A stretch of 63,726 bases of DNA, counting the filler, from Collodictyon triciliatum (lineage: Eukaryota), in the NCBI GenBank assembly GCA_043381765.1. It is 16 parts of 16 records of this genome, joined end to end, with 100 filler letters (N's around TTAATTAATTAA, not from the genome) between each part and the next. Parts side by side here need not be neighbours in the genome. Positions count along the whole stretch, not along the records: positions 16,484 to 20,502 come from JBHJMP010006583.1; positions 20,603 to 24,621 come from JBHJMP010006584.1; positions 24,722 to 28,740 come from JBHJMP010006585.1; positions 28,841 to 32,859 come from JBHJMP010006586.1; positions 32,960 to 37,021 come from JBHJMP010006587.1; positions 37,122 to 41,137 come from JBHJMP010006590.1; positions 41,238 to 45,254 come from JBHJMP010006591.1; positions 45,355 to 49,367 come from JBHJMP010006592.1; 8 more parts are not named here. One strand, given 5' to 3'. The translations under genes and the position numbers were made by a program. The stretch's first letter is position 1. Every line of letters begins with the position of its first letter. Positions 17,414 through 63,510 of the stretch are shown here, in pieces. Below the pieces are notes generated by a model. The model had not been told where the DNA came from. It was given only the letters and a program-made list of their open reading frames with translations, and searched no databases.

Positions 17414-20097
17414 TCAGTTCCCATAAAAACGCTGCAAAGCATTCATAACCCTTTCCTTGCCCTCTCTGCTGACCACCAAAATTTTCTCGTTGTCTGTCCA
17501 CAAGAGAGAATTGTTTTCCTTTGCTATTCGGATAATGGCATCCTTATAGCGAGAGTCATTAATCTGGATTAAAACTCCATATGAAGGGGATATCCTTTCA
17601 CGCTCCTTATACCAATATCGAATCTGATCGTAAACAGCTTTCGGCTTGGCGTCCTCAGTCACCTTAGGATGCATGTTCATCTCCAGAAAGTCTACCAACT
17701 ATATTTTTTAAAGATAAAAAATAGTCTATGAATGTTTTTTTTCAAAAGGATTCATTTTTAGTACAATATTAGTTTTTATAGGATTTCAGGAGTGAAACAC
17801 ATCAATTATTTTATGTATTTTCTTGAAAATTAGAGGGCTCATTTATGATTGAAAAGAAATGTAGATGAAGAGCGAAATAAATTACAAAAATATAAAGGGA
17901 AACGAATAAAGGCACTTAAAAAAAAAAACCGAACTTGTTGCGCAGTTATTCCTTCGTCGAAGGCGCGATTGACGCTTTTTCTTGTAATCATACCGACAAC
18001 AAGGTTTTGAAAGCGATATTGGAGCTTACAGAATCTTACGATAACGCGTATCTGCAAGTCAGAGTTGGTATACGCATATATTTTGTGATTTGTCTCTACC
18101 ACTAGATAACCCTCCGTTCGTTTCCTAGTTAGAACATCTGAGCACAGATTCACAGCCAAGCTTGAAGGGTAATACCGTGATGTTTTTTCCTTAACAAAAT
18201 AATAAAAATAAAAATAAACCTTAAGATTATTTTTCAGCCATGCACTCTTCTTCAAAGGCATATAATGAAAATTACCCTGCTCTGGTAAATGAGACCAAAC
18301 TGCCGGAAGTCATCAACGATAGTCAGATCTTCCTCGCTAAGACTCTTTCGATCATAATCCTGCTTTCAAAGACTTTGAGAATCAAAAGTCCAGAATCCTT
18401 CATTGTTGTGTATTTGATGTGAATAATTCAAGGTTTGATTCAAAGGGGTCGAAGTTACAACCTTTCCAGCATTCATGAATGTAAATCTAAACAAGAGCTT
18501 GATAACGTTCTGTCGAGGAATTCTTCTAAACTGCAGATATATTTGCATTTATTTCTTTGAGGTTAGAACAAACGGAAGGCGGGGGAACACATTCTCCTTC
18601 AGAAAAATGAGCGTACCCAAAATTGATTATTATTTTTTTTATTCTTCCTTTCAATTTTGTGCAGGATGGTGAAAGCGTACCCAAAATTGATATTTAAGAT
18701 AGGTAATTAGAAGAACTTTATTATATTCGTTGTTTTTNNNNNNNNNNNNNNNNNNNNNNNNNNNNNNNNNNNNNNNNNNNNNNNNNNNNNNNNNNNNNNN
18801 NNNNNNNNNNNNNNNNNNNNNNNNNNNNNNNNNNNNNNNNNNNNNNNNNNNNNNNNNNNNNNNNNNNNNNNNNNNNNNNNNNNNNNNNNNNNNNNNNNNN
18901 NNNNNNNNNNNNNNNNNNNNNNNNNNNNNNNNNNNNNNNNNNNNNNNNNNNNNNNNNNNNNNNNNNNNNNNNNNNNNNNNNNNNNNNNNNNNNNNNNNNN
19001 NNNNNNNNNNNNNNNNNNNNNNNNNNNNNNNNNNNNNNNNNNNNNNNNNNNNNNNNNNNNNNNNNNNNNNNNNNNNNNNNNNNNNNNNNNNNNNNNNNNN
19101 NNNNNNNNNNNNNNNNNNNNNNNNNNNNNNNNNNNNNNNNNNNNNNNNNNNNNNNNNNNNNNNNNNNNNNNNNNNNNNNNNNNNNNNNNNNNNNNNNNNN
19201 NNNNNNNNNNNNNNNNNNNNNNNNNNNNNNNNNNNNNNNNNNNNNNNNNNNNNNNNNNNNNNNNNNNNNNNNNNNNNNNNNNNNNNNNNNNNNNNNNNNN
19301 NNAAAAAAAGAAGCAGAGGCTACCTCTTCCCATTTGCTCTTTGCATTATCCTCTATATCTTTCAGAAGAACCTCTTCCCTGCCAACACCTAATTGTTGCC
19401 GGCTCTCCTCTTTTGTTTCTCTATTTATATATTGTTTCATGATATTAACAAACACAACGCTCATGAGGATGGGGCATGAAACAATATTTTAGCTGTTTTT
19501 TTTTATTTTGATAAAAAGAGAGTGATCATTTCATGTATATGCCCAGATTATTACCCAGTAACCACTCTTTGCATATTAACTCTGAAGTTCTCTTGAAGAA
19601 GCAACGTCCTTGTATAATTATGGAGACGAAAAATCAGTCACTAACCGTGTTAAAGTGTGGAAAGAACATCTTTTTCATTCCTCTAAAAAAAAAAAAGTTA
19701 ATAGATAAACAAATCAATAAAGATAGAGAGGAAAAGAATTCCTCAAACCTGTCGGCATTTACTTGCATGACTCGTAAACGCACCATTTTCTCAATACTTT
19801 CGTCCACTTCTCTACTATACTCTGGGATGACCCATGAGGCAACATCCTCGACTTTTAATGACCGCCCTCGCTCAAAGAATAGAAAGCGCAGCAGGAACTG
19901 CTTCGAAGACTCTGGCAAGGAACTTTTGGGAAGAGAAGAGCGAAGGGGAGCTGTGAGGCGGGGTACAAGATATAACGTGTTGGGGACAGTCCATACCGAA
20001 ATACAGCCATGCAAACGTAGAGATCTTCATAAAGAGTGTCGATCCAAGCAGGAGGCTGCTCTGATATGTAGTTGAAGATGATTTCCGATCTGTCCAT
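17414..20097 (-). CDS. GTF2H4: TFIIH subunit p52/Tfb2, spanning an internal N gap
   Basis: TLYED..CMAVFRSLP, DDFRQFGLIYQ, RYYPSSLAVNL, GYLVVETNHKIYAYTNSDLQ, GITAQQVVDFLEMNMHP, DQIRYW. Confidence 0.93.
18628..18673 (-). mobile_element. Mini-retroposon copy with an 18-bp TSD, in a p52 intron
   Basis: AGCGTACCCAAAATTGAT at 18610-18627 and 18674-18691 flanks T-run + ATTCTTCCTTTCAATTTTGTGCAGGATGGTG. Confidence 0.85.
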
Positions 20098-20797
20098 CTA
20101 TGAGACGTGTGTTTTAGTAGCAAAACCCCAGAAGGACAGACCGAAGTTGCGCACTCCCACAGGAAACGTGACAAAGCGCATCGGAGGAGCGACAGCAAAG
20201 ATTTATAGAATATGGTCAGGGTTTAGAGTCTTTTTTTTACGTATCTTTTTTTTTTTAAAAAAAAAAAACCTAAGTGATTATATTAATAATTTCTTCCTCG
20301 TCGATTCTATAGCCCACTTGATTGTTTGAACGCGCTGGGAGGTATCGTTATAAAGCCTCTTTTTTTCTTTTTTTTCTTTTTTTCTTTTTTTCCTTTTTTC
20401 CTTTTTCTTTTTTTCTTTTTTTCTTTTTTTCTTTTTTTCTTTTTTTCTTTTTTTCTTTTTTTTCTTTTTTTCTTTTTTTCTTTTTTTCTTTTTTTCTTTT
20501 TTNNNNNNNNNNNNNNNNNNNNNNNNNNNNNNNNNNNNNNNNNNNNTTAATTAATTAANNNNNNNNNNNNNNNNNNNNNNNNNNNNNNNNNNNNNNNNNN
20601 NNAAAAAGACAAAAAGACAAAAAGACAAAAAGACAAAAAGACAAAAAGACAAAAAGACAAAAAGACAAAAAGACAAAAAGACAAAAAGACAAAAAGACAA
20701 AAAGACAAATAGTTCAATTGGCAAAGTTTGTCTTCTGATTCGCTGGTGATGTCTTCTGTTCCGTCCACACCCGCTCGCTCTGTTAAGGCAACCGATC

Positions 20798-61583: not shown

Positions 61584-62012
61584 CTTGAAATGTTAACAAT
61601 CGCAAGTATTCATTGATTTTAATTATTATTCAAATAATAAAATAATAAAATAAAAGAAAAGAAGAAAAGAAGAAAAGAAGAAAAGAAGAAAAGAAGAAAA
61701 GAAGAAAAGAAGAAAAGAAGAAAAGAAGAAAAGAAGAAAAGAAGAAAAGAAGANNNNNNNNNNNNNNNNNNNNNNNNNNNNNNNNNNNNNNNNNNNNTTA
61801 ATTAATTAANNNNNNNNNNNNNNNNNNNNNNNNNNNNNNNNNNNNNNNNNNNNCCCCCCCCCCCCTCCGCTATTAAAAAACCCCCCCCTCCCACACCCTT
61901 TTTTATTTTTTGTTGGTTTTTTCCCCCCCCCCCCCCCTTCTTTTCATCTTTTATTCTTTTCAGCAATTTATATATATATGTGTGTATTTAATGACAATTA
62001 TTGAATTAGATA

Positions 62013-63510
62013 GCATCCCTTGAATCATCGTCTGCTAATGGAATTACGTCACGAAATATCCAGATAGAATTTTTGACTGAATTGAAATCAATAACTGACG
62101 CTTCGGGTCTTTATATAAAAATTTTTGATGAAATAAGAAAATAATCGATTGGGTAAGGTCTCACAAGATATTTTAATAAAGAAAAAAATTGTATCATATA
62201 GACCAAGGATGGCCCTTGTGCGTTGAGCTTACGAATGGAATCAAAGTTTTATGCGATTTTGTTGTATCTGCTACGGGTGTGCTCCCCAATTCGGATTTTC
62301 TTCCTATTGATGTACTTTTGAGTATACTATTTTGATAATTTTGATTTTTTATTCTTCCTTCCAATTTTGTGCAGGGTATTGGGTTTTAATATCGACTGAT
62401 ATCCATACATTAGCATAAGTGCAAAGTTAAACACGTTTTAAGATATGTTTAACTATGCAAAACAATTTTTTTTTGTCTTTCCTCCTTTTTTTTATGTTAT
62501 ATTGCAACCAGTTTGATAAATCAGTAGATGGCGCATTGGTTGTTAATAGGTTCTTTCCAATTCGAAATTATTAAATATTGTTTTACATAAAAATATCAAT
62601 TAGCTCTTTGCCTTTTAACATACTAACAAAATCATAATAAAAAAAAAAGCAATATGGAAACCAGTGTAAGCGATATATATGCTGCTGGTGATGTTGCATA
62701 TGTTAGCTGGCCTGATTCCCCTCACTGGTTTCAGGTTGTATGCGAGTTGCAAACAAAAAATAAAAATGATAACAACAATAATAACATAATTGAAATATCA
62801 AACCTAAATAGTCCTATATTCTTTATTTGATTGATTATCCATATTCTGTAGATGCGCCTTTGGAGCCAGGCTCGAAATATGGGAAGATATGCAGCATGGT
62901 GCATGATAGGTATTTTTCCCTTATTTTTATATATGCCTTATGTATATTATCTTTATTAAAATCAAGTTTGTAGATATGGTTGTGTATTGGTAATATTTCA
63001 GGCCTTCAATTACTCTGACCTCTTAAGAAAAAAAGTCAAGTGCGAACAATTTCTCCTTTTTTTTTCTCTCTCTCTCTACCATTCTCGTTAGGCAGCGACG
63101 AAAAGGACATTGATTTTACCTTTGAAATATTTACTCATGTTACAAAGTTTTTCAATCACCGGGTTGTTCTCCTCGGAAAGTAATTTCATTTGTCATCATT
63201 CTTGTAAAAATGCTAAATACATGAAATGAAGATATTGAAAATATGAACCATTGCATGGGTTATATAGTTTCAATGGTCAAAATCTTCCACCAGATGAAGT
63301 TGAAGTAAGAAAATTCACCATATTATACGCTTACAACGATGGAGATGCACGCTTTTTTTAAAAAATAATAATAATGAATATTGAACCTTAGACTTTAACA
63401 TTTCTGCTTAGTGTATGTATCGAGCGCATTTTGGTGATAATTTTGTGAAAGTTGTGATTCACAATAATAGACTGAAGGGGGCGATGTTAATTGGAGAAAC
63501 TGGATTAGAG
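62013..63510 (+). CDS. PYROXD1: PYROXD1-like pyridine nucleotide-disulfide oxidoreductase, internal part
   Basis: [53 protein letters not shown] and [11 protein letters not shown]. Confidence 0.9.
62345..62375 (-). mobile_element. Truncated mini-retroposon copy in a PYROXD1 intron
   Basis: TTTTTTATTCTTCCTTCCAATTTTGTGCAGG, with no clear TSD. Confidence 0.7.

Follow-up and report, generated by a model that had tools for sequence, protein, structure and literature searches.

Lengths of 100–1,000 bp are quoted for LINE copies in general (PMC3747384), and in Table 1 of PMC12016303 somatic human L1 inserts are given as 394 bp and germline ones as 1,240 bp. SINEs that carry an L1-clade tail have been reported as rare (three cases in 2012), although the supplementary list of SINE/LINE pairs in PMC3472496 may bear on this claim; described pairs are SINEX-3_CR with L1-1_CR in Chlamydomonas and ZmSINE2/3 with LINE1-1_ZM in maize. 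Modules are exchanged in mosaic SINEs such as the bivalve HCD SINEs (PMC11481361), and many elements of the Tx1 clade, as described from animals in PMC4494074, are target-specific.

Here, "the window" denotes the whole stretch of Collodictyon triciliatum DNA that was analysed (63,726 nucleotides, filler included), a concatenation in which six main copies of a short A-tailed motif sit on six different 4-kb contigs. A sequence-only reading had taken this motif for a free-standing, headless mini-retroposon, to be compared with LINE 3′ UTRs and longer SINEs. The motif matches both, being the 3′ UTR of a LINE ORF2 (family A, LINE-A) and the end of a SINE of about 515 nt; since the 5′-ends are continuous into both of these longer elements, a result that the sequence-only reading had itself named as telling against it, the independent mini-retroposon is largely refuted. 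The inserts are very probably 5′-truncated copies of LINE-A and SINE RNAs sharing one tail, made by target-primed reverse transcription (TPRT). The elements themselves are of known kinds, and the unusual part is the apparently early stop in copying. As annotation, this removes a false class of new mini-retroposon and defines its sources.

Tail-only copies in the window

All six copies were recovered on different contigs where the sequence-only reading had placed them, each on the minus strand, as were three exact target-site duplications (TSDs), each different. The copy at 18628..18673 (−) is a 35-nt stub of the LINE-A 3′ UTR with an A-rich tail, flanked by an exact 18-bp TSD (18610–18627/18674–18691) and 100% identical to the LINE copy L064 over 37 nt. 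The copy at 34438..34491 (−), with an exact 15-bp TSD (34423–34437/34492–34506), is a 44-nt stub that ends at GCCAAC plus one extra base and has the CGG tail variant, typical of the SINE lineage. The third, at 58983..59036 (−), consists of a 45-nt stub and an A tail between exact 16-bp TSDs (58967–58982/59037–59052). This stub lies in sense orientation inside a 162-nt intron (58941–59102): in a contig of run X1, position 58940 is followed directly by 59103, and the joint has intron ends. It is the one joint seen across this copy, and the site is bridged by no DNA contig; LINE sequence follows 59036 in contigs of runs X1, X3 and X4.

An older stub of about 41 nt with an A tail (27577..27625, −) has an imperfect TSD with an exact core of 10 bp, and a stub of about 29 nt with a short A tail (62345..62375, −) was searched for a TSD and none was found. 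The copy at 57574..57640 (−), at least 51 nt long and cut by the contig end, matches the 3′-end of the full-length SINE copy L272 without a difference over 62 nt and carries the exact tail variant of the full-length SINEs. This copy, placed at 57576 in the sequence-only reading, carries seven further LINE bases beyond GCCAAC, up to the contig end; two copies (34438 and 58983), not the three claimed, have their end at GCCAAC or no more than 1 nt from it. The degenerate copy suspected near 43870 corresponds to a tail-profile match of 16 bits at 43856..43888 (−), with 0 hits in the reversed-sequence control, and is graded only as probable, a search for a TSD around it having found none. An Rfam scan of the window returned one tRNA and nothing else.

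The suspected connection with LINEs of the window holds for a 538-bp piece of family A (29465..30002, −), which comprises the ORF2 C-terminus without its last ~48 nt and is 93.9% identical to L064 and 92% to L012. It fails for the reverse transcriptase (RT) fragment at 33311..34125 (−; RVT_1, E 1.5e-22), which was rejected as the parent: it belongs to a sister LINE, family B, with a different 3′ tail of its own, and is 92–95% identical to family B copies and about 74–75% (nucleotide) to the family A RT. A stub of the family B tail, 16 nt plus an A tail with a 14-bp TSD (31031..31057, +), is the same phenomenon in the other LINE family.

An L1-like LINE and a SINE with a common tail

In family A, the RT, zf-RVT, stop codon, a 53-nt 3′ UTR that constitutes the stub motif, and the A tail follow in this order. 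A 565-aa ORF2 frame in line with the tail is closed by a TAG that lies 56 nt short of the tail end. A frame left open into the A tail was rejected, since TAG is the norm and only mutated copies read through. The RT and the tail occur within one copy in L188, which has an internal deletion, and the span from RT to tail is tiled by L184/L180/L183 and L176; an intact full-length family A copy was not found. The best PDB hit of the L184 RT is human L1 ORF2p (102 bits, residues 11–354 of 360), against 67 bits for R2, in a comparison of clades that covered PDB L1 and R2 only; homologs of the RT carry PF00078. A PDB search with the C-terminal half of ORF2 gave no match, and a C-terminal CCHC zinc finger after the RT scored above the cut-off (zf-RVT, PF13966, E 4e-8). 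An APE endonuclease (PF03372) was seen in sister family B (L163). With an RT nearer to L1 than to R2, a CCHC finger, poly(A), TSDs and 5′ truncation, family A appears to bear the marks of the L1 clade, and its ORF2p would be the enzyme that mobilises the stubs. The RT and C-terminal zinc finger recall the L1-related Tx1-clade LINEs as well, but the insertions here are dispersed, with flanks unrelated except for a T/A bias, and show no target specificity.

The SINE begins with an A/B-box-like head, continues in a unique body and ends in the last ~154 nt of the LINE. A total of 21 heads were identified, 11 of them full-length through the LINE-A tail; the full copies begin at a common 5′ start, with a G run, the 10 measured are 513–524 nt long with a mean identity of 92.5%, and 6 of the 11 have TSDs. 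An A-box-like motif at position 14 and a B-box motif at 57, judged by the general box consensus, suggest transcription by Pol III. The head was not recognised as a tRNA by ARAGORN (0/9) or Rfam, and local alignments were best with tRNA-Ala (z 6.3) and tRNA-Lys (z 5.6) among an incomplete set of 23 tRNAs. The CGG tail variant occurs in 11/11 SINEs versus 0/24 long LINE copies (Fisher p 2e-9); of the 30 CGG-variant copies that pass the stop codon, 9 enter the SINE body and 3 continue in the LINE beyond the SINE junction, so the variant is not exclusive to SINEs and single stubs are not assignable with certainty. None of 30 SINE-variant loci exceeds ~75 nt, and they are as short as LINE-type copies.

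This layout of A/B-box-like head, unique body, LINE-derived tail and poly(A) end resembles the Chlamydomonas and maize pairs. It differs in that the tail of ~154 nt reaches into ORF2, compared with ~80 nt in Chlamydomonas, and in that most SINE-variant copies are truncated to under 75 nt. Nor was the conserved, covarying 3′ stem-loop of stringent-type pairs found: RNAalifold on 34 copies, whose low divergence limits power, gave 0 compensatory pairs, a single 6-bp helix located in ORF2 and none in the UTR. Single-sequence folding gave z values of −0.3 to −2.2, with one of +0.5. As in the mosaic, tail-swapping HCD SINEs of bivalves, the same head and body were found joined to two different tails, but the LINE partner of the second tail was not found here, families A and B giving no match. 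The list of such cases, reported in 2012 as very short, thus gains a microbial eukaryote whose multi-copy SINE occurs with an L1-like tail and also with another one, which bears on whether RNA recognition in the L1 clade was ancestrally stringent.

Insertion marks and lengths genome-wide

The exact 28-mer core has 433 matches in the 75.4 Mb assembly and 0 in the control, and TSDs flank 70 of 90 sampled copies, against 0, 1 and 0 in mismatched-flank controls. These controls exclude chance, and the stubs are real TPRT insertions; the L1-type mechanism proposed from the A tail, variable TSDs and 5′ truncation is borne out. The 70 TSDs are 10–25 bp long (median 16 bp), T occupies position −1 in 49 and A position 0 in 55 of these sites, and the 5′ joints are blunt in 29, microhomologous in 28 and provided with extra bases in 13. 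The A tail is short, with a median of 8 nt past the core. A 24-mer search with up to 2 mismatches sets a hard floor of 1,107 tail matches, or 1 per 68 kb, so the density of about 1 per 10 kb given in the sequence-only reading applies to this window only; a further 8 tail-profile hits occur in about 174 kb of flanks beyond it.

In place of the 45–55 nt assigned to the element, lengths span 17 nt to more than 1.6 kb. The median of young copies is about 34 nt, with the 5′-end inside the UTR in 57/62, and 24 of 40 further copies are under 28 nt, which rejects a minimum insertion set by a terminal hairpin at 28 nt. The number of 24-mer matches (up to 2 mismatches) falls with depth from 1,107 at the tail to 445 at −107, 298 at −456 and 27 in the RT; the length skew was measured on exact-match, and hence young, copies, and the all-age ratio (445/1,107) is milder. 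In family B, which also gives stubs, 14/30 hits are 44 nt or less. The L1-like RT, C-terminal zinc finger, A tail, variable TSDs of ~16 bp, AT-rich target and 5′ truncation are shared with TPRT copies of human L1, from which the system differs in its 53-nt 3′ UTR, short A tail and young copies with a median near 34 nt. The target also reads T/A(T or A), in contrast to TT/AAAA. A paper describing tail-only stubs as the main product of a LINE was not found in a partial coverage of the literature.

Possible causes of the short length

A putative LINE endonuclease would nick the DNA at T/A in an AT-rich setting, and cDNA synthesis would be primed by means of the A tail and would usually stop within 17–55 nt; a staggered second nick and end-joining would then produce the ~16-bp TSD and the blunt, microhomologous or extra-base joints. 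On balance, the shortness is somewhat more likely than not to reflect mainly such early termination of cDNA synthesis. A more tentative extension, possible though doubtful, is that the L1-like machinery of this host works in two phases: a poorly processive start, in which most insertions would end within 17–55 nt at stops fixed by the template (at 44 nt for family A, at 18 nt for family B and in a C-run for the SINE lineage), and then a processive one, where stops per base would be about six times fewer. If so, tail-only stubs would be the main product for both LINE families as well as for the tail-swapping SINE family with its L1-type tail, and would offer a natural read-out of the switch from TPRT initiation to elongation, or of RNP-protected RNA fragments.

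Alternatively, the template may already be short, a LINE or SINE RNA being cut or trimmed 5′-to-3′ and a protein-protected 3′ fragment copied whole, with tail-bound ORF2p or a ribosome positioned over the stop codon as candidate protectors. Footprint sizes and RNA decay enzymes are general background to this idea, which we consider rather unlikely. It would account for a modest 5′-end hotspot at GCCAAC, which starts 9 nt downstream of the stop codon and takes 9 of the 70 TSD-defined ends, the other 24 positions averaging 2.0 (Poisson p 3e-4; 0.007 corrected for 25 positions), for the cluster of family B stubs at 18 nt, to which 8 of the 18 short hits belong, and for a stop rate per nt that drops from 4.4% at 28–53 nt to 2.3% at 54–68 nt and 0.75% at 69–178 nt. 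A ribosome footprint leaves unexplained, however, why the 30 non-coding SINE-variant loci are equally short, and the ends are spread across the whole UTR. RNA structure was rejected as the cause of the hotspot, as the 5-bp hairpin over the stop codon in single sequences has no covariation support.

Less probable still is ordinary LINE truncation that looks extreme through exact-match anchoring, an assembly that breaks where young repeats are long, and counter-selection of longer insertions in a genome dense with genes. Long copies are indeed older, with a mean pairwise identity of 91.8%, and the anchors seldom match them (2/29 with an exact 17-mer, 17/29 with a 24-mer at 2 mismatches), 9/30 family B hits and 6/30 variant hits run off contig ends, and the samples were drawn from the first-listed contigs. 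Against this, none of the 90 sampled copies is cut by a contig end (6 are censored at 180–229 nt by the length of flank taken, and three of these, C620, C795 and C975, extend to 456 nt or more), flanks picked independently of the tail and scanned with the profile still yield 14 short hits and 1 long among 15, and stubs with intact TSDs number in the hundreds. An independent RNA of ~45 nt, starting at GCCAAC and retroposed as a headless mini-SINE whose source is a single master locus or a small number of them, is highly improbable and was rejected: it would explain the pile-up at GCCAAC (4 more such ends occur among the 40 further copies), but 61/70 ends defined by a TSD fall at other positions, at lengths of 17 nt or more, its sequence is continuous with longer elements without a fixed 5′-end of its own, and the GCCAAC-ended copies share no common non-LINE 5′ sequence and show several tail variants, also found in longer copies, which indicates several templates.

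Whichever process ends the copies, the more than one thousand stubs, with their exact TSDs and their stops at particular positions, are ready data on the cause of LINE 5′ truncation; they fall under the usual limits of repeat masking and would serve as presence/absence markers of strains. All seven copies in the window lie on the minus strand (p 0.016), a bias rejected as a general property, the genome-wide strand counts being 192 and 241.

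The LINE parent of the poly(A)-tailed stubs

A fuzzy search of the window (sixteen contigs of ~4 kb separated by N spacers) with a 30-nt core recovered the same six copies listed by the sequence-only reading and no others; the weak copy proposed near 43870 was picked up by a profile of the tail, and the three exact target-site duplications (TSDs) of 18, 15 and 16 bp were borne out. In the assembly, which is eukaryotic and fragmented (75.4 Mb in 14,576 contigs), a 28-nt core gave 433 exact matches (control, 0). The proposed density of about one copy per 10 kb holds locally but not elsewhere, as ~174 kb of other flanks contained 8 matches; the genome-wide number is at least 1,107.

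Several of the first 30 genomic copies reach far upstream, one by ~690 nt, and this extension matches window 29465–30002 at 92%. In thirty long copies the motif is positioned 3′ of an ORF2 whose TAG stop codon lies 56 nt before the end of the tail; the motif is therefore a 53-nt 3′ UTR. The ORF2 frame of this LINE, family A, contains a zf-RVT domain, and the best solved relative of its reverse transcriptase (RT) is human L1 ORF2p (102 bits, vs. 67 bits for R2), with plant and fish RTs as named homologs (~30% identity). Natural copies tile the element from RT to tail, and one (L188) retains both ends around an internal deletion; no intact full-length copy of family A was found. Probes allowing up to two mismatches gave 1,107 matches in the tail, 445 at −107, 298 at −456 and 27 in the RT. 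The 5′ ends form a continuous truncation gradient into a longer element, and the independent mini-retroposon envisaged from the sequence was therefore abandoned.

The terminal residues of ORF2 at locus L064 and at window 29465–29572 (minus strand) are QFLITDYF, a PIP-box-like motif. Two copies on contigs C4149 and C10130 (loci L047, L059 and L063) have ~1.8 kb in common, comprising a non-ORF2 region followed by the last ~730 nt of LINE-A; judged from this arrangement, the element is possibly an internally deleted, non-autonomous derivative of LINE-A. A further 819-bp repeat (window 53828–54646), unrelated to the ORF2 tail, is 89% identical to L064:3142–3953 (oriented).

A second parent: a SINE with the LINE-A tail

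A CGG tail variant is carried by window copies 34438 and 57576 and has 167 matches genome-wide. The first 30 of these loci, two of which are the same place, are all shorter than ~75 nt, and most end in a C-run. Among the 34 variant copies extending beyond the stop codon, thirty were read. In nine, the LINE sequence gives way at a single junction, 154 nt before the end, to a non-LINE body common to all of them; another three carry on as LINE sequence. The shared body runs to a fixed 5′ start, and its head contains A-box-like and B-box motifs. Among 21 matches to this SINE head, 11 run full-length into the LINE-A tail (513–524 nt in the ten measured; TSDs on six of the 11), three have a different tail, and the remaining seven are either interrupted at a contig end or consist of a short piece of the head. 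The CGG variant occurs in 11/11 full-length SINEs vs. 0/24 long LINE copies, and a 62-nt stretch of window copy 57576 matches a SINE copy (L272) without a difference. The stubs have two parents. A tRNA origin of the SINE head is tentative: no tRNA was called in it by ARAGORN or Rfam, and its best alignments to 23 tRNAs scored z 6.3 and 5.6.

A second SINE tail of ~95 nt, unrelated to the first, has 18 matches genome-wide and was joined to the SINE body in five of six fetched loci; head and body with this tail occur at L331:1499–1966, L335, L339 and L360–L364. Neither family A nor family B yielded its donor LINE. SINE tail swapping is already known (PMC11481361) and three L1-tailed SINEs were counted in 2012 (PMC3472496); the present analysis adds that the SINE is a multi-copy family and what part of the stubs it contributes. 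The borrowed tail starts just upstream of QFLITDYF in ORF2. An A-to-C substitution 5′ to the stop codon, confined to TCGG-variant SINE copies (L321, L324, L327 and L328 in a 34-copy alignment), would lengthen a stem by one pair in these few copies.

Insertion hallmarks, copy length and the GCCAAC hotspot

Length and TSDs were determined for the first 90 listed of the 433 exact-core copies, with six lengths censored: 64 copies are ≤53 nt and 76 are ≤100 nt (median, 44.5 nt). The hallmarks of target-primed reverse transcription are present, with TSDs on 70 of the 90 (mismatched-flank controls, 0, 1 and 0), 10–25 bp long (median, 16), and T then A at the cut. Of the 5′ joints of these 70, 29 are blunt, 28 show microhomology and 13 contain extra bases. 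A 17-nt probe gave 1,029 matches (control, 0); by hand tally of the first 62 listed, 24 are <28 nt, 33 are 28–53 nt and five are longer (median, ~34 nt), two of the shortest having common flanks and perhaps representing one insertion.

LINE 5′ truncation is a textbook feature (PMC3956500), and truncated lengths are given as 100–1,000 bp in PMC3747384. The stubs are far shorter than the human L1 medians of 394 and 1,240 bp in PMC12016303, a comparison across differing detection limits. In a literature search of partial coverage, no paper was found that describes tail-only stubs as the principal product.

The GCCAAC end ascribed to three window copies does not hold for copy 57576, which continues as LINE sequence up to the contig end. 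The G of GCCAAC, 9 nt past the stop codon, is where nine of the 70 TSD-defined ends lie (corrected p 0.007) and where 4/40 further copies end. Copies ending there carry several tail variants that are also present in longer copies, which makes one short master starting at GCCAAC very unlikely; the hotspot is a site on templates that these copies have in common with longer ones. Individual sequences fold into hairpins, for which an alignment of 34 copies gave no covariation support.

Family A ORF2p would mobilise both LINE and SINE; their common tail suggests tail recognition, as in the stringent pairs described in PMC3747384, though no conserved stem-loop was found in it across the 34 aligned copies. 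The per-base stop rate drops from 4.4% at 28–53 nt to 0.75% at 69–178 nt. We lean towards early termination of cDNA synthesis as the origin of the short copies. Reverse transcription of a pre-trimmed, protected RNA would be a doubtful origin. Sampling or selection is less likely still; exact anchors do favour young copies, the 17-mer being kept in only 2/29 long copies.

Family A stubs and SINE copies also lie within apparent other LINE copies (L024:1500, L097, L168, L333 and L336–L338), the host at L024 being a family B LINE. The target sequences at L097 and L168 are nearly identical and their 5′ ends differ.

Sister family B, the intronic copy and other window features

The RT at window position 33311 belongs to sister family B, whose RT is ~74–75% identical to that of family A and whose tail is different; an APE domain was found in this family. 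Family B resembles family A in its short stubs: 14 of 30 tails are ≤44 nt, nine of the 30 ran off contig ends, and 8 of 18 shorter matches are 18 nt. Its stubs in the window lie at 31031–31057 (+), 47868–47927 (+) and ~50741 (−), one with a 14-bp TSD. A 952-aa RT/RNase H/integrase-like frame adjoining a family B LINE (L171, C929:2000–4855, minus strand) would, by motif reading, belong to an LTR-type retrotransposon.

A contig from sequencing run X1 (none of the runs listed is recorded as RNA) joins seven pieces, and four listed joints have intron ends. One such joint skips 58941–59102, which places copy 58983 within an intron. This copy (58983–59036) is sense-oriented in its intron; the antisense strand of its tail (plus-strand reading) presents a pyrimidine tract followed by CAG, resembling a 3′ splice site, and antisense intronic stubs could create splice acceptors.

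The sole Rfam match in the window is a tRNA-Gly(GCC) gene at 42025–42095 (+). The contig at 1–4026 has 55% GC vs. 31–45% in the other contigs, and may have come into the assembly from a different organism or compartment.
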